From the NCBI GenBank assembly GCA_046485185.1, contig JAWOHL010000061.1, forward strand, positions 1 to 62,662: DNA of 62,662 bases, given 5' to 3'. Under the pieces are notes generated by a model, which saw only the letters and a program-made list of their open reading frames with translations, had not been told where the DNA came from and did not search any database. Of this stretch, positions 1,856 to 12,520 are shown piece by piece (the first letter of the stretch is position 1; each line of letters starts with the position of its first letter). This DNA is from Candidatus Fermentibacteraceae bacterium (lineage in GTDB: Bacteria > Fermentibacterota > Fermentibacteria > Fermentibacterales > JCC-6). The position numbers and the translations under genes were made by a program.

Positions 1856-2030
1856 TTGTGTTCTCCTTATATATACGGTCATTTGTTTCACTGATGCATT
1901 AATCCTATATCAAGGAGTTGCAGAAAAGTAAAGACCCTCGAAAGTGCATTCCTCTGGTAACCCTCTTGACCCCTGCTCCCCGATTCACTAATTCATGGGC
2001 CTGAGGAGTCATTTCAAAAAAGGGGGGACC

Positions 2031-3935
2031 ATGAGGGAGACCTGGGGAAGCAGGCGGGCCTTCATTCTGGCGGCAATTGGAAGCGCCATAGGGCTCGGCA
2101 ACATCTGGAGATTCCCGTACATCGCGTACGCCAACGGCGGCGGAGCCTTTCTGGTGGCCTACTTCGCGTGCCTTTTCATCGCCGGCATTCCAGTTCTGAT
2201 GCTCGAGTTCGGCCTGGGACACAGGTACAGGCAGGCCGCTCCCGGAGCATTCAGGGGTATAAAGCCGTCACTTGAATGGTTTGGGTGGATGGCGGCGCTG
2301 CTTTCCTTCGTGATCGTTGTTTACTACGCCATAATCATGGGCTGGTGCATGAACTACACCTACGAGGCCGCCAGACAGGGATGGAGGCAGGAACCAGGTC
2401 TTCACGCCGACCCTTCCGTAGCCCTTGCCCCCACTGATCTTGCGGACATGGATGTTCTCACGCCGGTGCCCCTCGAGATGGAAGGAACTCCTTTCGTCTC
2501 GCCCGTGAATCGTGTTTCCGGAGTTGTGGCTGTCGAACCCACGACCCTTGTCGTACATGAGGGCAACATCTACGGTTTTGCTTCAAGGGCACAGGCCGGG
2601 GCTTTCGCCGACAACCCCAGTATCGATGAGAACCTTTCGATCGCGGCTATGGGAGGAGATGAAACAAGGCTTCTGGCTGGAATTCCTGCAGACCTTCTGG
2701 GCAGGCCCTTCATTTCTCCGGTGGACGGTTCCGAGGGGGTCGTGAGGAACATCTCCACCATTCTGATAGCCTACGACGGCGTTCTCTACGGGTTTGACAG
2801 CGTGGACGAAGCCAGCACCTTCATGGGTTCGCCGGGGGACTTCTTCTACAACCGGTTCCTCGGGCTGACTTCTTCGCCGTGGGACCTTGGAAGCTTCCGC
2901 TGGCCCCTTTTCATAGGCTTCGCCCTATCATGGGTTTGGATCATCGCAAGCATCTGGAAGGGAACCAAAACCGTGGGCCGCGTCGTCTACTACACGGTTA
3001 TCATCCCGTGGGTGCTGCTTCTTGTCTTCATAATTCGTGGGGTTACACTTCCGGGTGCGGCGGTGGGGCTTTCCTATTACCTCACGCCGGACTGGAGCCG
3101 GCTTCTCAGCGGCGACATCTGGCTGGCGGCCCTTACACAGGTTTTCTTCAGCCTGAGCGTTGGGTTCGGAGTGATGATCGCTTACGGAAGCTTTCTGCCC
3201 AAGAAAGCCAATCTGGCGGGAAACGCCTTTATCATCGGAATAGCCGATGCGCTGACCGCCTTCTGTGGGGGGCTTGCTGTCTTCAGCGCGCTTGGGTTCC
3301 AGGCGGCGCGTCTGGGAGTTCCCGTCAGCGAGGTCGTGAAGTCGGGACCAGGCCTTGCGTTCGTCGCCTACCCGCACATCATCTCCAGCCTTCCGGGGGC
3401 GGCTTTCTTCGGGGTTCTGTTCTTCGTCATGCTGCTCACATTGGCCGTTGATTCGGCTTTCAGCCTTGTTGAGGGGGTCACCGCTTCCCTGAAGGACAAG
3501 TGGGGGCTCTCCCACAAGCGGGTCAACCTGATCGTGGGCGGGACGGCGTTCCTGCTGGGGCTTCCCATGCTGACGGGCGCGGGGCTCTACATTCTGGACA
3601 TCGTGGACCACTTCATGAACAGTGTTGCCCTGGTGCTTGTTGTTCTTGGCCAGCTTCTGATCATAGGGTGGGCTTTCCCTGCCGAGAAGATGCGGACCTA
3701 CATCAACTCGAACTCGGGCATGCGCATAGGGTGGTGGTGGAACACCAGCGTAAGGTGGATCATACCCATGGGGATGTTCTGGATGCTGGCAAGCGAGCTT
3801 CAGGCCAGGGGGCTTTCAGCCTACGGCAACTTCGGGCTCAGAAGCCAGGACTTCCTTCTGGGTTGGCTGGTGGTTCTGATCCTGCCGGTTGCGGGAGACA
3901 TGCTGGCTTCCAGGAAAGGGGTCTGGAAGGACTAG
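2031..3935 (+). CDS. Sodium-dependent transporter, NSS/SNF family, with ~150-aa insertion in extracellular loop 2
   Basis: RETWGSRxxFILAAIGSAIGLGNIWRFPY, NGGGAF, QVFFSLSVGFG, GPGLAFVAYP are NSS hallmarks; ATG 2031 follows AGGGGG. Confidence 0.93.
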   Translation: MRETWGSRRAFILAAIGSAIGLGNIWRFPYIAYANGGGAFLVAYFACLFIAGIPVLMLEFGLGHRYRQAAPGAFRGIKPSLEWFGWMAALLSFVIVVYYAIIMGWCMNYTYEAARQGWRQEPGLHADPSVALAPTDLADMDVLTPVPLEMEGTPFVSPVNRVSGVVAVEPTTLVVHEGNIYGFASRAQAGAFADNPSIDENLSIAAMGGDETRLLAGIPADLLGRPFISPVDGSEGVVRNISTILIAYDGVLYGFDSVDEASTFMGSPGDFFYNRFLGLTSSPWDLGSFRWPLFIGFALSWVWIIASIWKGTKTVGRVVYYTVIIPWVLLLVFIIRGVTLPGAAVGLSYYLTPDWSRLLSGDIWLAALTQVFFSLSVGFGVMIAYGSFLPKKANLAGNAFIIGIADALTAFCGGLAVFSALGFQAARLGVPVSEVVKSGPGLAFVAYPHIISSLPGAAFFGVLFFVMLLTLAVDSAFSLVEGVTASLKDKWGLSHKRVNLIVGGTAFLLGLPMLTGAGLYILDIVDHFMNSVALVLVVLGQLLIIGWAFPAEKMRTYINSNSGMRIGWWWNTSVRWIIPMGMFWMLASELQARGLSAYGNFGLRSQDFLLGWLVVLILPVAGDMLASRKGVWKD

Positions 3936-5038
3936 TAGTTTCCAAGGGCCGGGCAGGTCGAGCAGTCCGATGAAACGCATTCGAGGTCAGCCCTGACCAA
4001 AAAGCTGAAACCCGAGTCGGGCTCGCACCTGTAACCGAAACCGCTCATGTACTGGTAAACTATGCCCGCCCTCTCCAGGTCGTACGGCTCGTACGCAACG
4101 GCGAACATCCTGAACCTCCTGGCGTCGGCCGCCGTCACCGCGAGCTGCTGCCACTGCGACAGCACCGCTTCCGATCTGGCGTCGAACCAGGATGGTCCGA
4201 TCACGCCCGAAAGCTCGGGGATCCTTTCGAGGGCTTCGCCCCAGCGCGAAGAATCCGTCTCGATAACCACAAGGGGGGGCATCTCGGCACTTGCGAGGTC
4301 GGCGGCAAGTTCAAGGCCCCTGTCACCGGTCATGCCGGTGAATACCAGAAGGTAAAGCGAGTCCTGGTTCATGGCGTTCCACACCCCGGGGTCTTCAGCG
4401 GCGTTCACCTGTCTGGGGTCGACGGGGGCTCTGTAATACCCTGCAAGCCCCCTGACACCGATGACCATGAAGTAGACGGCAACGAAAACGGCAAGAATGC
4501 GGGCTGCCACAGTGAACCATTTGCGGGCCGTGAAGAGCCCCGCAACCGAAAGGGGCAGCATGTAGACCGTTGTTCCGACGAAGAACCCCGCGAAGAGCAG
4601 GGCGCCATTCAGGGCACCCCCCGCATCGAACGCGCTTGTGAGGGCGATGAGGAATGCGGGGCAGATCGAGAAGCCCGTGAGTATTCCGAGAAGGAAGGGG
4701 CTGCCCGTGAACTTCGTCCAGCGTGATACTCCGCAGCCCCCGCATTTTTTGTTGACCCTCAGCGTGCTGACCAGAAGGAACACGCTGAAGAGAATGTACC
4801 CCGCAAAGGAGAGGGGGATCCTGATACTGGAAGGAATGCTGCCCCCCAGCATGCCTATGACCGCCCCGAAGCAGACGTAGGCCGCGAACCTTCCCAGGTT
4901 CAGGGTGAGCAGGACCAGAAGCGACTGCCGGCCGCTTCTCTTCTCGCTGAACAGGTACGCCGCATAGACCGGCCCGCACGAGGCCAGGCAGGACACACCC
5001 GTGGCGAGCCCGAGGCTCAGCCCCTCTGCAAGCGCCAC
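3932..5038 (-). CDS. DsbD_2/TauE-SafE-like multi-pass membrane protein with C-terminal soluble Cys-rich domain
   Basis: GTG start with GGGGAG RBS; SCLASCGP and GFSICPAF motifs in two hydrophobic repeats; C-terminal CEPD...CVSSDCSTCP. Confidence 0.65.
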   Translation of the reverse strand: MALAEGLSLGLATGVSCLASCGPVYAAYLFSEKRSGRQSLLVLLTLNLGRFAAYVCFGAVIGMLGGSIPSSIRIPLSFAGYILFSVFLLVSTLRVNKKCGGCGVSRWTKFTGSPFLLGILTGFSICPAFLIALTSAFDAGGALNGALLFAGFFVGTTVYMLPLSVAGLFTARKWFTVAARILAVFVAVYFMVIGVRGLAGYYRAPVDPRQVNAAEDPGVWNAMNQDSLYLLVFTGMTGDRGLELAADLASAEMPPLVVIETDSSRWGEALERIPELSGVIGPSWFDARSEAVLSQWQQLAVTAADARRFRMFAVAYEPYDLERAGIVYQYMSGFGYRCEPDSGFSFLVRADLECVSSDCSTCPALGNY

Positions 5039-5062
5039 TGTCTCCCCTTTCCGGGTTGAGGT

Positions 5063-6268
5063 TTAGATGTGGGCCGCAGGGTAGAAGGCCAAACCGCCCT
5101 GAAAGGAGTTCCAAACTTCGGTGTACTCCAGTTCGGAGGCCTGGCGGCGGATGAGGAACCATGCGGACAGACCGTTCTTCATCCTGTATTCCAGACCACC
5201 CCCGTAGGTTTCACGTCTGCGGGTGCCACCGGTGCCGGTGATGCTGCTGGGGCCCTCCCATATCCTTCCGTTCACGAGAACCGAAAGACCCCGGTAAACG
5301 CCCACACGGGTTTCCAGTTCGCCGAACCGGGTTCTGATGGAGCTTTCGGTGCCCTGGCCGTAAAGGCTGACGCTGGAGGGGTGTTCGCCCCAACCCGTGA
5401 AGGCGTACCTGAGCCTGGCGCCTGCCTGGTAGGCAGCAAGCCTGGTCACGTCTTCATCGAAGTCGATGGTCTGGCACACCGTGAAGTTGAAGGTGAGGTT
5501 CGGGGCAAGGGTCTGAACGGCCCGCACCCTTGCGGTGGCCCTTTCCGGAAGTGGTGTGCCGTTGTGGTCGTCGCCGGCCTGAACCGACCATGCAAGGTCG
5601 GCCATGACCTGTGTGCGGGTCGGCAGTGTCCGGGGGGCAAGGCTGGCCGCGAAGTCCACCCGGCTGTAGGTCTCGTCGAAATCGGCCCCTTCGATCGCGG
5701 TGTTGTGGCTCATGCCGCTGACGCCAAGGTCGACGCCAAGGGGAGTGTACCAGACGGCGCCGCCCCCGGCCCTGGTTTCTGCCCAGGCGAGGTCCTGGTC
5801 ATCCTGGTCGGACACGCTTCGGTCCCAGTAGCGGCCGAAGGCGCTCAGCCTGACCGTTCCGGGAAGTTCCCAGCCCAGGTTGAGACCGGGGCGCACCGAG
5901 CTTGTGCGCTCGCCGATCCCCTCGGATCGGGGCAGAACAACGCCGGAGCTGTCAAAGTCGGTGGTGAAGCGGAAATCGGGCCGCACCGTGAGGCCGCCTG
6001 CTCGGTAGCGCACTGAAAGAGTTGTTTCAGAGCGGTTCCGGGAAAAACGGGGAAGCGCCGCATTGTCTTCAGAGGCCTTCCTGTAGGTCTGGTCGAGTTG
6101 GAAGCGCCACGGGCCCTCGAACAGCCGGACTCCGGCGGATGCGTCGAGGTAGGCGCCGCCCCCGTAATTCACGCTGTCATTTGCCACTGATACTCGGGCG
6201 TACTCTTCAACACCCAGTGCCATGCAGCTCGCGAGAAGCCCCCAGAGCAGAACGATGACGGTTTTCAT
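5063..6268 (-). CDS. Putative outer-membrane beta-barrel protein
   Basis: True start ATG 6268 overlaps the upstream stop (TGATG); signal peptide MKTVIVLLWGLLASCMALG; many amphipathic alternating strands with aromatic residues; ends ...FQGGLAFYPAAHI. Confidence 0.6.
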   Translation of the reverse strand: MKTVIVLLWGLLASCMALGVEEYARVSVANDSVNYGGGAYLDASAGVRLFEGPWRFQLDQTYRKASEDNAALPRFSRNRSETTLSVRYRAGGLTVRPDFRFTTDFDSSGVVLPRSEGIGERTSSVRPGLNLGWELPGTVRLSAFGRYWDRSVSDQDDQDLAWAETRAGGGAVWYTPLGVDLGVSGMSHNTAIEGADFDETYSRVDFAASLAPRTLPTRTQVMADLAWSVQAGDDHNGTPLPERATARVRAVQTLAPNLTFNFTVCQTIDFDEDVTRLAAYQAGARLRYAFTGWGEHPSSVSLYGQGTESSIRTRFGELETRVGVYRGLSVLVNGRIWEGPSSITGTGGTRRRETYGGGLEYRMKNGLSAWFLIRRQASELEYTEVWNSFQGGLAFYPAAHI

Positions 6269-6510
6269 CAGAACACCGCTCCCTTCGGGCAGATCTCGAC
6301 GCAGCGGTAGCAGAGGCGGCAGAGCGTGGGGTTGATCACGGCGTCGCCATCCACGACCTCGATGGCGTTGTAGGGGCAGACCTTCTCGCATTCGCCGCAG
6401 CCTATGCAGAGGTCGTTGTCCACCACGAGACCCGTGTTATCTGTGGGGGCGGAACACGCGGCCAGCATAAGCAGGACCGCCAGTAACAGAGCCTCAGTGA
6501 ATCGCGTCAT
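6268..6510 (-). CDS. Lipoprotein 2[4Fe-4S] ferredoxin
   Basis: Lipobox LAAC after a hydrophobic stretch; CIGCGECEKVCP and CRLCYRCVEICP. Confidence 0.85.
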   Translation of the reverse strand: MTRFTEALLLAVLLMLAACSAPTDNTGLVVDNDLCIGCGECEKVCPYNAIEVVDGDAVINPTLCRLCYRCVEICPKGAVF

Positions 6511-6727
6511 AAGTGCACACCCCCTGGCAGAGCCCGCAGCCTATGCACTTGGCCGGGTCGATGCTGGATTTGCCGTTTTCAATCTCTATTGCATCAACGG
6601 GACAGACCCTGAAGCAGTCGCCGCAGCCCGAGCAGTTGTCGGACTCGACCCAGTAGCGAACCGCACCCACCGCTATGGCTGCCGTAAGAAACAGAACCAA
6701 AAGAATCCCCCCCCTGAAACGCATCAT
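6494..6727 (-). CDS. Signal-peptide-bearing 2[4Fe-4S] ferredoxin
   Basis: MMRFRGGILLVLFLTAAIAVGA signal; CSGCGDCFRVCP and CIGCGLCQGVCT. Confidence 0.85.
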   Translation of the reverse strand: MMRFRGGILLVLFLTAAIAVGAVRYWVESDNCSGCGDCFRVCPVDAIEIENGKSSIDPAKCIGCGLCQGVCTYDAIH

Positions 6728-7140
6728 TTCACCTCGAATTCGGCTTCTATCGGGATTTCTTCCTCGTTCACCCCGTAAAGCTCAAGGTTTTCCTCACCGA
6801 CCGTCACAATTGCGCCCACAGGGCACGATGCCACGCACAAACCGCAGAGGATGCACTTCTCGGGGTCGATCAAGGCCTTGTTGTCTTCGGTCATGCTTAT
6901 GGCGTCCACGGGGCATGTGGAGAGACAGAGCTGGCAGCCGATGCATGCCTCGGGGTTTATGATGTAGTCTTCGTTGAGCTCGACCGAACACTCCGTTGGG
7001 GCAACCTCGGCCATGATCCGGCCGAAGGATTTGACCCGGAGAGACTGGAAATCACCCTCGACGGGCGCCCATCTCAGTGTGAACAACCCGGCCGCAGCGG
7101 CAGCAGCGAGGGCAAGAACAATGAACGGGTGCTTTTTCAT
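6724..7140 (-). CDS. Signal-peptide-bearing 2[4Fe-4S] ferredoxin with FN3-like flanking strands
   Basis: Start ATG 7140 (GGAAAAGGAAAG upstream); MKKHPFIVLALAAAAAAG signal; CIGCQLCLSTCP and CILCGLCVASCP. Confidence 0.82.
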   Translation of the reverse strand: MKKHPFIVLALAAAAAAGLFTLRWAPVEGDFQSLRVKSFGRIMAEVAPTECSVELNEDYIINPEACIGCQLCLSTCPVDAISMTEDNKALIDPEKCILCGLCVASCPVGAIVTVGEENLELYGVNEEEIPIEAEFEVK

Positions 7141-7160
7141 TCTTTCCTTTTCCTTCCGGG

Positions 7161-8132
7161 TCAGCGCTGGGCTGGAGGAGGTGGGACTTCGGGCTGGGTT
7201 CCCGCGGGAAGCACCAGCCTTCTCACGGCCTGATTGTGCTGATAGTATTCGTCGGGGTTGATCACATCCCTGTAGTTCCAGCACTCAAGAAAACATTGTC
7301 CGCAGTTGATGCACAGGTCGTAATTGATGTAGACCATCCCGGGCAGTCCGTAGACGTTGTCGAGGTCCTGCCAGATGGCGTCGACCGGGCAGCCCGGCCC
7401 GGTGTACGCCCCGGAATCGTTGTACTCCATGAGCAGGGCACAGGTGGTGCAGGCCCCTTCGGGAGCGGTCGTCATGCATTTCAGACAACCCCCGAAAGGA
7501 ATGAAGTCGTAAATGTAAGTCACGATCTGCATGGGCTCGGATGAAACCTGTATGTCCTCGGAGGCTTCGGTCTCACCGAAGAAAGCCCTGATCCCCACGT
7601 AGTAGCCCTCGCCCATGCGGCCGCCTTCGATGGCGTTCACGGGGCAGGCGTCTTCGCAAAGGCCGCAGCTTCCGCAGAGGTCCTCATTAATCACTGCAAG
7701 GCCGTTCACGACCTCGATGGCCCTGTTGGGGAGGATGGGGCACGCAGCCTCGCAAAGGCCGCACCCGATGCAGGCTTCGGAGATTACCCGGGGCTGGAGG
7801 AACACCAGGGCTGACTCGGCGGGGGCGGGTATCTCGCCCGCAACAACGGCGCTGTTCCAGTTGTCTGTGGTGATGGGCGAGGTGGAAAGCCTTGCCTGGT
7901 ACCACGCGGCGCCCTCCACGGGCGTGAAGAAGACCGTGAACGCCTTGTACTCGCCACCCTTTATCCAGGTGTAGACCGAACCCAGTTCGGGGGACATGGC
8001 GGTGAAGCCCGTGTCCACAAGTACGGCCCCCGGTTGAACCGCCGCCGGCGCCATGGGGCGCGGGGTCTCGGTAAGGCACGCCGCCATGACCGCCAGAGCC
8101 ACAGTCAGGGCCACAACAATTCCCTTGAGCAT
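7161..8132 (-). CDS. Lipoprotein polyferredoxin (FN3-like domain plus two ferredoxin modules)
   Basis: ATG 8132 with GGAGG RBS; lipobox MAAC; CIGCGLCEAACP/CGSCGLCEDACP; second module CLKC..CTTC..CP..CINCGQCFLEC. Confidence 0.82.
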   Translation of the reverse strand: MLKGIVVALTVALAVMAACLTETPRPMAPAAVQPGAVLVDTGFTAMSPELGSVYTWIKGGEYKAFTVFFTPVEGAAWYQARLSTSPITTDNWNSAVVAGEIPAPAESALVFLQPRVISEACIGCGLCEAACPILPNRAIEVVNGLAVINEDLCGSCGLCEDACPVNAIEGGRMGEGYYVGIRAFFGETEASEDIQVSSEPMQIVTYIYDFIPFGGCLKCMTTAPEGACTTCALLMEYNDSGAYTGPGCPVDAIWQDLDNVYGLPGMVYINYDLCINCGQCFLECWNYRDVINPDEYYQHNQAVRRLVLPAGTQPEVPPPPAQR

Positions 8133-8285
8133 TATTGCCCTCCGTTTCAACGGATGTATCGTTCAAATGAAGATAGTATTCCCATGCACGTTCGGGTTCC
8201 CGGTGGAAACCACTGAACTTGTATACTATCTAATGGAATGATACCGAAGGCAAGGTTTCTGGAAACAAGAGGAAGATGGTGATCC

Positions 8286-8706: not shown

Positions 8707-10026
8707 TTATCGGATCACGGTCACTTTACCTGAGACAAGTTCTCCTTCGCAGGCTATCCCGTAGAAGTACAAGCCGGAGGGGAACCCCCCGGCGCTGACT
8801 CTCACGGTATGGCTGCCTGACTCGAGAATGCCGTCGTGGAGAGTGGATACCCTTCTCCCGGCGCAGTCGAAAAGAGACATGCGCACATTCCCGGGGGCTG
8901 CCATTTCGAAGGTTATCCCGATCTCGCCGGATGGGTCGACGGAGGCGTGATGGCTCCCGAGAATACTTGCGGGAACGGCTGAACTGTATTCGCCACCGTC
9001 CCGTCCGTCCCAATTGTGGTGCATGGCGGAACACAGGAAATCAAGCGCGATCGGGAACCTCTCGGTGAGTTTGTCGAAGTGTCCTCCTTCGAAGACCTGG
9101 TACTCGTAGTCGATTCCCATCACGTCAAGTGAGCAGGCGAAAGCGTTGGAGGAAGGCATGATGTAGAACTGGTCCTGGGTGCCGGCATCGAAGTACACCC
9201 TGCCGTTATGCCTCCAGGGCGGAACAGCCAGGTTCTGGACCAGGTTGGGCATGTTGTGCTGCATCCAGAGTTCCCATACCCCTGGTATGAGGTTGGCGTA
9301 CGGATCCAGTGGAAGGTCAACGTAGAAGGGCGGATTGGTGAGATTTGGGGAAAAGGCCCCGGACATGCTGAACAGCACTGCATTGGCGAACCCGGCGCTG
9401 GGTGTGTAGAACCAGGGAGGACCCTGCTGCCCCATGGCCTGGAGTTCGGCAAGCACACCATAAACGTTGATCATGAGCATGCTGGGCAGGTCGAGACCGG
9501 AGGCGCATACCCCCGCGGCGCAGCAGTAAAGGTCAGGGTGCTGCCCGTAGTACATGAGCGCCCCGTAACCGCCCATGGAGTGACCCATGAGGGCTCTCTT
9601 CATCCGGCTTGGAATGGTTCTGAAACTGGCGTCCGTCCAGGCGATGAGGTCTGTGGACATGTAACCCTCCATATCCCCGTAAAGCGCTGAGCTTGTGTAG
9701 AATGACGCCGGGTACGGGGATGAGAATCCGTCGGGCCTCACCACGATGACCGGTTTGATCTGATGGGTTTCGATCATCTCGTCCAGGGTTGCCACCAGTG
9801 TGGGGAATTCGTTGTGGCCGAGAAGTATCCCGGCACCGTGGAAATAGTAGATCACGGGATACCTTCCGATCCCCTGGGGCTGGTAGCCCTCCGGAAGGTA
9901 AACCTGCACGCTCTTCTCCTGACCCAGCGCCGGGCTGAAGAACGAAGTGTTCACTATGGTCCCCCCCGCGAACACTTCCAGAGGCAGAGCCAGAAGGAGC
10001 ATGGCTGTGAGCAGAACCCTGTACAT
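8707..10026 (-). CDS. Secreted alpha/beta-hydrolase (putative esterase family) with C-terminal sorting-type domain
   Basis: Start ATG 10026, signal MYRVLLTAMLLLALPLEVFA; YLPEGY..YPVIYYFHG, GHSMGG nucleophile elbow, DAGTQD, GGH; C-terminal FDCAGRRV...SGLYFY. Confidence 0.88.
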   Translation of the reverse strand: MYRVLLTAMLLLALPLEVFAGGTIVNTSFFSPALGQEKSVQVYLPEGYQPQGIGRYPVIYYFHGAGILLGHNEFPTLVATLDEMIETHQIKPVIVVRPDGFSSPYPASFYTSSALYGDMEGYMSTDLIAWTDASFRTIPSRMKRALMGHSMGGYGALMYYGQHPDLYCCAAGVCASGLDLPSMLMINVYGVLAELQAMGQQGPPWFYTPSAGFANAVLFSMSGAFSPNLTNPPFYVDLPLDPYANLIPGVWELWMQHNMPNLVQNLAVPPWRHNGRVYFDAGTQDQFYIMPSSNAFACSLDVMGIDYEYQVFEGGHFDKLTERFPIALDFLCSAMHHNWDGRDGGEYSSAVPASILGSHHASVDPSGEIGITFEMAAPGNVRMSLFDCAGRRVSTLHDGILESGSHTVRVSAGGFPSGLYFYGIACEGELVSGKVTVIR

Positions 10027-10440
10027 CTCCGTACACCCCTCTCTCAAGACATGCTGCTGACAGCCGGTGTTTCCGGCCTGTTCCGGCGGCGCCGACACTG
10101 ATACCGCTCGGAGGGGAAGTAGCCTGAGACAAGCAAGTTAGAGGATGTACCCCATGTTCTTGTCGGTGCTGCCGACAGCAGCCCCTGGTGGTGTATATAC
10201 GCCATCGCATATGATGTCAATAACAGTGATTCTTTACGTGTTGTATATGGTAAAGGATGATGATATTCTTATATATTCAATAATATTGGGTCTTTGTGTA
10301 TTGTATTATCTAAATGCCATATACAACACTAGTATGGAATACTATATGTACATAATTACCGTTTCTGTACGTAATGCTGTTCGCACCTGTCTGCTCCCTG
10401 TTCCGTGCCAGTCCATGACCCCCCCACTCAGTTCTGTCAT

Positions 10441-10984: not shown

Positions 10985-12520
10985 TTACCGGGCCACGACC
11001 ATGCGGGTGTTGCGTGAGCTGCCCGCGGAAGTCACCCTGATGGTGTAAACACCCATGGGAAGTGAGGAGGCATCCACCGAAACCATGTTCTCACCCGGTG
11101 TGAGGAGGATAGTCTCCCGGTGCACCGACCTGCCGGCGATGTCGAATACCTGGAGGCCGGCCTGAGCCGGTGACAGTGCCTGAATCCTGACCATTGCCGA
11201 GGAGGAGACCGGGTTGGGCTGGACGCTGAGTGGTGCGCCCGAAAAAACCGGAGCACTGGCGGCATCGCCGATGCCGGTTTCGACCGGGTCTGCAAGGTAG
11301 GCAACCGCTGCGATGCATGCCTTTGCCATGTTGGTTCCGAAGGGGAAGTACTGCATGTAGTTAGCCATCAGGTCGGTCGTCTGGTGGTAGTAAGGGTTGC
11401 TGAAGACCTGCCGCTCGATGTTAAGCATGGCGGCGTAGCCGCTGTACCAGAAACTGGCGTGATCGCTGGCGCCGGAAGGGCTTGAGGCGACCTCCATTGA
11501 AAGAGCCGGAACGTAGGTGTCGCTTATGGCCTGGAAGGCAACGCCAAGACCTGTGGATGCGGTGTTGTAGTGGAGCCATGCGATGTCGTTCCCTGCGGGG
11601 CCGTAGAATATCATGTCCATGTTGACCACGCCCATGATGCTGTCGCCGGCCGCGGCTGCCTGAGTGGCGTAGTATTCGCTGCCGTAGAGGCCCTGTTCCT
11701 CGCCGCCGAAGAGCATGTACTTGATCGTGTACTCGAACTGGTACTGGCTCATGAGCCTTGCGGCCTCGACCACCGCTGCGGAACCGCTGCCGTTGTCATC
11801 GGCGCCCGGGGCGTTGTAGGAGGGGTTGGGTGAAGTGCTGTCGAGGTGGCCGCAGATGACCCAGTAGCGGTTGGGGTAGAGCGTGCCGGTCTGGGTCGCT
11901 ATCACATTCTGGCAGTTGTAGCTTCCCATCGGAAAGGGCTGTATCTCGACTTCGAGCCCCATGCCTTCGAACCTTTCCTGGCTCCAGGCGCACGCGGTGT
12001 CGAACCCGTCGGAGTTGGAGTGCCGGGTCAGGTAGTTCTGATAGTTCGTGGTGTAGTTGATGAGCGAGTCCTGGTTGACGGCAGCCACGATGTCGGCCAC
12101 AACAGCGTCGTAACCGCTGCGCATTGGTATGGGGATGGGGTGCGCCGGAGCTCTGTTCTCCCGCAGGGGCTGGATGTGGTGAATGCCCGGACGCACGAAG
12201 TCTTCCGGCATGGGTCCCGAAAGCCTGACAATCACTGTATTGCCGTCGCGGTAGACCGGTTCGCCGATCCCGGCTATGTCAAGCATGCCGGCTTCGGTCC
12301 GGACTGTCACCAGCGCGAAGTCCGCAAGACCCCTTGCGCCCGAGTCGAGAACCCGTGAGTCGGCGGTGGGGAAGCCCAGACCAACTATGTGATCATGCGC
12401 CCTGTAGACCACTATGTATCCGTCACGTGCCTCGGCTTCAGGGTCGGGGATGATGAAGAGACCCGCGCCGAAAGCCTGAACCGCAATGAGGACGAGCGCA
12501 AAAAAAAGTGCTTTCTTCAT
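10985..12520 (-). CDS. Secreted M28 family aminopeptidase with C-terminal sorting-type domain
   Basis: Signal peptide; GHLDS, GADDNGSG, GEEQGL, NMDMI, SDH, YHQTTD; C-terminal PNPV...FDIAGR...GVYTIRV. Confidence 0.92.
   Translation of the reverse strand: MKKALFFALVLIAVQAFGAGLFIIPDPEAEARDGYIVVYRAHDHIVGLGFPTADSRVLDSGARGLADFALVTVRTEAGMLDIAGIGEPVYRDGNTVIVRLSGPMPEDFVRPGIHHIQPLRENRAPAHPIPIPMRSGYDAVVADIVAAVNQDSLINYTTNYQNYLTRHSNSDGFDTACAWSQERFEGMGLEVEIQPFPMGSYNCQNVIATQTGTLYPNRYWVICGHLDSTSPNPSYNAPGADDNGSGSAAVVEAARLMSQYQFEYTIKYMLFGGEEQGLYGSEYYATQAAAAGDSIMGVVNMDMIFYGPAGNDIAWLHYNTASTGLGVAFQAISDTYVPALSMEVASSPSGASDHASFWYSGYAAMLNIERQVFSNPYYHQTTDLMANYMQYFPFGTNMAKACIAAVAYLADPVETGIGDAASAPVFSGAPLSVQPNPVSSSAMVRIQALSPAQAGLQVFDIAGRSVHRETILLTPGENMVSVDASSLPMGVYTIRVTSAGSSRNTRMVVAR

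Follow-up and report, generated by a model that had tools for sequence, protein, structure and literature searches.

The stretch of DNA analysed here (hereafter the window) is the 62,662-nucleotide contig JAWOHL010000061.1 of the uncultured fermenter Candidatus Fermentibacteraceae bacterium (phylum Fermentibacterota, GenBank assembly GCA_046485185.1). Its positions 3932–8132 hold six co-directional minus-strand genes that are tightly packed or overlapping. They encode four ferredoxin proteins (here named FerA, FerB, FerC and FerD), a 401-amino-acid (aa) protein with a signal peptide and a DsbD_2 membrane protein. Fer4-type domains are the only Pfam domains found in native FerA–D, DsbD_2 is found in the last gene, and none of the six has a specific model in NCBIfam. 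FerA most likely starts with the ATG at 8132, which has GGAGGG 5 nt before it; an alternative in-frame TTG upstream, at 8150, would add MKRRAI. FerA is built on one fibronectin type III (FN3) β-sandwich whose E–F turn accommodates a whole clostridial-type ferredoxin, an architecture that we regard as close to certain.

FerA consists, in order, of a lipobox cysteine (Cys19), FN3 strands A–E, a 2×[4Fe–4S] ferredoxin, FN3 strands F and G, and an atypical ferredoxin-like module with eight cysteines. The FN3 part reads FTVFFTPVEGAAWYQARLSTSPITTDNWNSA (residues 65–95) and then SALVFLQP (106–113); the ferredoxin reads CIGCGLCEAACP...CGSCGLCEDACP (C121–C163) and is followed by GEGYYVGIRAF (174–184). 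A sequence-only reading of the window had quoted such strings from two adjacent genes and proposed that a ferredoxin is spliced into the E–F loop of an FN3 scaffold in both; the strings are exact and stand where it placed them, on the minus strand. The inserted ferredoxin carries C121, C124, C127, C131, C153, C156, C159 and C163, and the C-terminal module carries C216, C219, C231 and C248 as well as C274, C277, C280 and C284. A word-indexed search returned ∼57 full-length FerA homologues with identities down to 34%, and the few that bear an organism label belong to Candidatus Sabulitectum or Fermentibacterales. In an alignment of 55 of these homologues (down to 35% identity), the 8 + 8 cysteines and Cys19 are invariant, and F65, Y78, R81, P86, N91, W92, Y177, R182 and A183 show little or no variation. 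Because the cysteines and the flanking motifs are conserved across 55 homologues, the FerA pattern is not due to chance. A lipobox pattern is matched in 52 of the 55 sequences, and the remaining three likewise read A-C-L/I; FerA thus combines the basic n-region, hydrophobic core and lipobox with invariant cysteine of a lipoprotein.

The AlphaFold2 (AF2) model of FerA has a mean predicted local distance difference test score (pLDDT) of 83.8 and a predicted template modelling score of 0.81. Its strand succession is that of an FN3 domain, i.e. A-B-C-C′-E, then the ferredoxin (121–168), then F-G, with pLDDT >90 for the strands. This is the topology that the sequence-only reading had predicted. A Foldseek search of the model against the PDB places polyferredoxins on top, while lower matches include nectin-2 D1, CTLA-4, SoxYZ and a collagen XX fn3 domain, with alignments of 141–174 columns for targets of ∼110 residues.

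FN3 identity was assessed with a profile (A3) of 24 homologues from which the ferredoxin had been excised, residues 31–116 being joined in silico to residues 171–212, so that the splice junction lies between profile positions 84 and 85. With the insert removed, the flanks match FN3/immunoglobulin (Ig) folds: the best PDB sequence match of A3 is an FN3 domain (7jgt_A), in two collinear pieces over strands B/C and F, and nearly all further PDB matches are immunoglobulin-type domains. Pfam fn3 aligns to the excised members in one stretch, from protein positions 21–106 to profile positions 12–83 of 84 (E = 8e-4). When the FerA profile with the ferredoxin still in place was run exhaustively as a hidden Markov model against 1.84 billion representative proteins, it recovered its own family, polyferredoxins and three giant proteins (P0182, P0229 and P0256), each of which was matched 13–22 times at profile positions about 35–106. 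According to Pfam, the giants are tandem fn3 arrays (P0182 has 21 fn3 stretches, E = 1.8e-166), and P0229 also bears a Por_Secre_tail, which is a type-IX-secretion sorting domain. Against the giants, A3 reaches 330, 343 and 244 bits, and its best score for a single repeat is 40.3 bits; reversed and shuffled giants score below 0. Each repeat aligns continuously to A3 from position ∼29 to 97–105, i.e. across the junction and including the F strand (YYFgIRaf). The FerA family motif reads FTLRW...A.YYEIRASE.PIT.ENW..A...[E strand]-Fer-..YYFGIRAF, and the giant repeats read LSWTAP....A.YDVRYST.TIT.GNW.SAT...ETFTVTGL-SESTT-YYFAIKT. Since the two motifs match around the insert, the ferredoxin sits exactly in the E–F turn. 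We consider this comparison of A3 with the fn3 repeats to be decisive for the FN3 identity of the FerA scaffold, as far as sequence can settle it; together with the negative controls, the 7jgt_A match and the strand order of the model, it bears out the E–F insertion proposed for FerA. When the FerA and FerB profiles without their inserts were compared by hhalign with the eukaryotic fibronectin 10Fn3 and tenascin Fn3, which as single target sequences are too weak for the purpose, the probabilities were <1%; this null result is superseded by the comparison with the tandem-fn3 giants. No uninterrupted paralogue of the scaffold was found in the window's genome, in which fn3 has one weak match only.

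FerB reads FTLRWAPVEGDFQSLRVKS (20–38) ... SVEL (52–55), CIGCQLCLSTCP...CILCGLCVASCP and LELYGVN (119–125). Its AF2 model (pLDDT 88) has a FerA-like topology of six strands that is missing strand A. In the FerB clade of the window the first strand follows directly after the signal peptide, and in longer homologues one more strand precedes it. Foldseek superposes the insert on 1fca with a TM score of 0.93, a root-mean-square deviation of 1.0 Å and 49% identity; the top 50 matches of the whole model are all ferredoxins and hence uninformative on the sandwich. FerA and FerB share 34% identity over 105 residues in BLASTP, from FT..W.PVEG onward, and their scaffolds alone align in hhalign over strands B-C-C′ with a probability of 65.7% (E = 5.7e-5). 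The claim that FerB has the same design therefore stands for its topology but not for an FN3 assignment by sequence, and the shared ancestry claimed for the two genes is probable rather than proven. FerB is likely a reduced and diverged copy of the FerA design, with a common origin. Separately, an Aegiribacteria FerB (L007:5897-6388) reads CIADGIC in its first cluster motif, where Asp replaces the second Cys, which suggests a [3Fe–4S] or Asp-ligated cluster.

In a whole-genome survey, FerA was found in 60 of 70 Fermentibacterota genomes, including 43 of the 46 of high quality and all 14 genera (14/14). FerB appears in the same survey as a second match beside FerA that begins at profile position ∼66, i.e. 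inside the scaffold and not in the ferredoxin alone. A divergent FerA branch comprises P0158, P0162, P0166, P0175, P0177, P0179 and P0294–P0305, of which P0179 alone is labelled Fibrobacterota. Matches in Cloacimonadota, Clostridia and archaea from a genome-contig scan were rejected as RnfB or polyferredoxins with another architecture. In some genomes FerA is present as two or three tandem copies (L009:5275-5892 and 6001-6972; G061:C34:17132-19351; G013:C21:6113-9023).

Table 1. Features of the ferredoxin gene set in the window, and a gene that follows the set in related loci (L-numbers denote loci; positions without an L-number are those of the window).
Feature	Position	Strand	Description	Evidence or remark
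FerA (P0001)	7161–8132	minus	323 aa	
FerA signal peptide and lipobox	8076–8132	minus	residues 1–19, MLKGIVVALTVALAVMAA-C	Cys19 invariant in 55 homologues
FerA FN3 part 1	7788–8042	minus	strands A (36–39), B (64–68), C (77–83), C′ (96–102), E (107–111)	AF2 DSSP, pLDDT >90; fn3-repeat alignment
FerA inserted clostridial-type 2×[4Fe–4S] ferredoxin	7620–7787	minus	residues 116–171	Pfam Fer4/Fer4_21; Foldseek and PDB ferredoxin matches
FerA FN3 part 2	7539–7619	minus	strands F (177–184, YYVGIRAF), G (190–197)	AF2; YYFgIRaf aligns to fn3 F strand in the same alignment as strands B–E
FerA C-terminal module	7164–7538	minus	strand 201–207, 8-Cys ferredoxin-like domain, strand 303–309	AF2 pLDDT 70–93 except 220–230
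FerB (P0002)	6724–7140	minus	138 aa	
FerB signal peptide or anchor	7087–7140	minus	MKKHPFIVLALAAAAAAG	sequence; residues 1–16 of low pLDDT
FerB scaffold part 1	6967–7086	minus	strands 19–23, 33–38, 41–46, 52–56 (B, C, C′, E equivalents)	AF2 pLDDT >90
FerB inserted 2×[4Fe–4S] ferredoxin	6799–6966	minus	residues 59–114	Pfam Fer4_21 E = 1.5e-19
FerB scaffold part 2	6727–6798	minus	strands 119–124 (ELYGVN), 128–131 (F, G equivalents)	AF2
FerC	6494–6727	minus	77-aa ferredoxin with signal peptide	kept in L001, L003, L006–L009
FerD	6268–6510	minus	80-aa lipoprotein ferredoxin, lipobox LLMLAAC	kept in related loci
401-aa protein (P0003)	5063–6268	minus	signal-peptide protein; putative outer-membrane barrel	no family match
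DsbD_2 membrane protein	3932–5038	minus	368 aa, Cys-rich C-terminal domain	Pfam DsbD_2 E = 1.5e-23
Citrate-lyase-beta-like gene	L001:11153-12349; L003:11330-12469; L007:9312-10520; L008; L009:10496-11446			

FerA does not stand alone. A recurrent set in Fermentibacterota comprises FerA, small exported-type ferredoxins, a protein of ∼400–450 aa that lacks a family match and the DsbD_2 protein. The order is rearranged to Fer-Fer-Fer-unnamed-DsbD_2-FerA in a Fibrobacterota-labelled metagenome-assembled genome (locus L095) and in three unlabelled metagenome contigs, and the L095 module, when read through, contains no FerB-type protein. The 401-aa protein neighbours the ferredoxins in both Fermentibacterota and divergent-branch loci, and the DsbD_2 protein is kept in every examined locus that extends beyond the ferredoxin genes. 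The positive-inside rule predicts an N-out/C-out topology for the DsbD_2 protein, with six helices, a cytoplasmic CGGC loop and cysteines in transmembrane helices 1 and 4; its C-terminal domain, which ends C...CxxxxCxxCP, is predicted to be periplasmic. The window's genome (98.6% complete) has zero open reading frames (ORFs) with at least two CxxCH motifs.

Several other genes lie near these modules. In L095, the selenocysteine genes SelA and SelB (L095:2090-3520 and L095:9083-10987) flank the ferredoxin/DsbD_2 module. A Disaggr_repeat protein of ∼220 aa heads the module in three of four divergent-branch loci (L095:3978-4643, L096:4272-4949 and L086:2-160), and that of L095 and L086 bears a Por_Secre_tail. 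A citrate-lyase-beta-like gene (HpcH_HpaI/C-C_Bond_Lyase) follows DsbD_2 in five Fermentibacterota loci (Table 1), with an ACP-like N-terminal domain on record in L001 only. The window has no such gene after DsbD_2; a convergent NSS-family transporter (1995–3935, plus strand) abuts DsbD_2 there and contains an insert of ∼150 residues with two internal repeats (PFVSPVN... / PFISPVD...). Upstream of FerA, an esterase (8707–10098) and an M28-like peptidase (10985–12520), both on the minus strand, end in a β-rich extension of ∼75 residues. By eye, these extensions look like the FlgD_ig/type-IX-secretion sorting domain; if so, they would fit an FCB-group envelope.

The location of the ferredoxins was examined through their N-termini. 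FerA and FerD have lipoboxes, while FerB and FerC have signal-peptide-like N-termini, and no other ferredoxin-motif ORF of the genome shares the basic-then-hydrophobic, signal-peptide-like start of FerA–D. RnfB of the same genome instead has an uncharged membrane anchor at its N-terminus, with a charge arrangement that is opposite to that of FerA–D and typical of an N-out anchor. TatC, of the twin-arginine translocation (Tat) route, is present in the window's genome, and canonical twin-arginine signals occur on ORFs elsewhere in it. FerA read from its ATG has no twin-arginine motif, and most of the family likewise shows no RR. Canonical Tat lipoprotein signals occur in two distant FerA relatives, as GRRDFLKSL...ASC in P0153 (GRRDFLKSLSATAVVFASC) and as MQRRDFFKSL...VAC in P0191 (MQRRDFFKSLSAATSAALVAC), and one further family member has a Tat-like RR stretch. 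The FerA family seems to use both Sec and Tat export routes, and the signals on P0153 and P0191 argue that its members are exported and cofactor-bearing.

Export of FerA is likely on these grounds. Taken together, the sorting-tailed fn3 relative, the invariant lipobox and the two relatives with Tat signals provide independent evidence that the ferredoxins act outside the cytoplasm. In the divergent branch, including P0179, the sequence from the lipid-modified Cys onward reads C-S-D-[DE]-F, which closely resembles the SDDFE and SDDDD signals for surface-lipoprotein export in Bacteroidetes (PMC5080379). In the Fermentibacterota branch, the sequence from the lipobox Cys onward is also conserved (C-L-x-E-[ST]) but less acidic. 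Surface display of FerA is plausible, given its lipoprotein signal, the giant fn3 relative with a Por_Secre_tail and the CSD[DE]F stretch of the divergent branch, and we offer it as a lead.

What might such an architecture do? The N- and C-termini of a clostridial-type ferredoxin lie side by side, and for this reason the domain could occupy a loop while the host fold stays intact. As a rigid pedestal, the FN3 domain could then hold the inserted clusters in a fixed position with respect to the second module and the partner proteins. FerA–D, together with the putative barrel of ∼400 aa and the DsbD_2 protein, may make up a haem-free route for electrons in the cell envelope, of which FerA would be the anchored, possibly surface-facing, end. 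The four ferredoxin proteins are predicted to hold ten [4Fe–4S] sites (4 + 2 + 2 + 2). Because most family members carry Sec-type lipoprotein signals, the clusters would have to be inserted once the proteins had left the cytoplasm; the anoxic habitat might supply Fe(II) and sulphide, and the DsbD/CcdA-like protein might keep the ferredoxin cysteines reduced, by analogy with CcdA in cytochrome c maturation. We assign a probability of roughly 55% to the general form of this proposal, i.e. FN3-nested, exported ferredoxins that belong to a haem-free path for electrons in the envelope. A more specific version holds that FerA is the lipid-anchored outward end of the first described haem-free, all-[4Fe–4S] electron conduit across the envelope of a diderm, in which FerA would play the part of MtrC, FerB–D that of MtrA and the 401-aa protein that of the sheath, with clusters loaded after Sec export with the help of DsbD_2. 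We consider this version possible but doubtful.

Several observations weigh against the proposal, either at the level of the fold or at that of the path. For the fold, excised FerA family members reach 20 bits at best, which is below the Pfam fn3 gathering cut-off of 25; native, uncut FerA gives no Pfam fn3 match at E ≤ 0.01; the Ig-like Foldseek matches that span the insert, and would thus speak for one-domain packing of the FN3 halves, are weak (E about 0.1, TM 0.32–0.42); and the FerB scaffold by itself gives no match to the fn3 arrays. For the path, we know of no pathway that loads iron–sulphur (Fe–S) clusters outside the cytoplasm; no electron donor or acceptor was identified; and the 401-aa putative barrel matched no Pfam (even in a relaxed scan), NCBIfam or PDB profile. 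Also, TatC is present in the genome, and a start at the TTG at 8150 would give FerA the weak Tat-like stretch KRRAIMLK.

An alternative is that FerA–D are ordinary periplasmic carriers that relay electrons from one periplasmic or inner-membrane enzyme to another and pass nothing across the outer membrane, the 401-aa protein being unrelated to electron transfer. The export signals and the ferredoxin folds fit this too, and the barrel identity of the 401-aa protein is only putative. We nevertheless find it unlikely, since none of the loci examined has a periplasmic redox enzyme in or beside the module, and since the 400–450-aa protein stays with the ferredoxins even where the gene order is altered in the divergent branch.

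The cofactor itself could also be questioned. The proteins may leave through Sec as apo-proteins that capture environmental Fe, sulphide or FeS, or that act as sacrificial redox buffers, in which case the LysE-superfamily DsbD_2 protein would be a transporter or a source of reductant and the barrel an uptake channel. Consistent with this, the DsbD_2 protein is always co-encoded, and most family members lack a Tat motif and so would exit unfolded and cluster-free; moreover, the bacteria come from anoxic habitats such as anaerobic digesters (PMC5030696). The sixteen invariant cysteines in CxxCxxCxxxCP geometry and the near-perfect clostridial fold point instead to stable clusters, four di-cluster proteins exceed what a binding role would seem to need, and Tat use in two relatives implies cofactors loaded before export. 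Capture or handling of this kind is thus decidedly improbable. A cytoplasm-facing, RnfB-type ferredoxin whose N-terminal segment is a mere anchor, and for whose location the FN3 likeness is irrelevant, is very hard to credit: RnfB of the same genome does begin with a hydrophobic helix ahead of its ferredoxin domains, but FerA differs from it by its basic n-region and invariant lipobox Cys, FerD also has a lipobox, some relatives bear canonical Tat signals and a giant fn3 scaffold relative bears a type-IX-secretion sorting tail.

The sequence-only reading had noted that it knew of no such architecture, and we agree. Both folds are known, but a ferredoxin nested in the E–F turn of the FN3 domain of an exported lipoprotein is absent from Pfam, from NCBIfam and from the papers that we found. 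Our literature searches on exported or lipoprotein ferredoxins, FN3 domains with a ferredoxin and cytochrome-independent conduits returned nothing relevant, and neither cytochromes nor the periplasm come up in the Hyd24-12 genome paper. FerA thus represents a natural redox domain that is nested in an FN3 loop and maintained phylum-wide. FN3 and ferredoxin folds are common tools in protein engineering, and a natural way to hold Fe–S clusters on a rigid extracellular scaffold would be useful there. The system also bears on Fe–S maturation after Sec export and on envelope electron transfer in cytochrome-free bacteria; if the conduit version is true, it would imply a new route of Fe–S maturation. 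The envelope redox system to which the architecture belongs may itself be of a new kind. FerA is small, has a good predicted model and is easily expressed, and so offers a suitable starting point for both questions.

The closest relatives of the two parts of FerA are found in different protein groups. The scaffold is closest to a bacterial subtype of fn3 (PF00041) with the pattern Y-x-[IV]-R-Y-S-x-x-P-I-T-x-x-N-W-x-x-A, as in P0182, P0229 and P0256, whose strands B–G align with FerA residue by residue. The FerA family and the giant repeats share the B-strand W, the YE[IV]R C strand, PIT..NW and the YYF.I[RK] F strand, whereas FerA differs by the 55-residue ferredoxin at the E–F turn and by a long A–B loop (40–63), and its clade in the window has F instead of the B-strand W. 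The inserts of FerA and FerB, like the clostridial ferredoxins 1FCA and 1FDN, have two CxxCxxCxxxCP motifs; clostridial ferredoxins are free cytoplasmic carriers, while those of FerA and FerB are nested in an exported-type β-sandwich.

At the level of whole proteins, polyferredoxins and proteins with inserted ferredoxins (e.g. FwdF, MvhB, RnfB and HdrA) are the best matches of FerA in both sequence and fold. They also carry several di-cluster modules per chain, which form an electron wire, but they are cytoplasmic or cytoplasm-facing and have neither an FN3 scaffold nor a lipoprotein signal. Ferredoxin-type clusters outside the cytoplasm are known from Tat-exported Fe–S subunits (NrfC, DmsB, PsrB and NapG). 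These have twin-arginine signals and catalytic partners, whereas the FerA family is mostly of the Sec type and no catalytic partner is encoded with it. Compared with MtrCAB of Shewanella and Pcc of Geobacter, the Fer module has no haem, no sequence relationship was found and the barrel is putative. The likeness, by analogy only, lies in the combination of parts: a lipoprotein redox subunit, periplasmic multi-centre carriers, a putative barrel and about ten redox centres.

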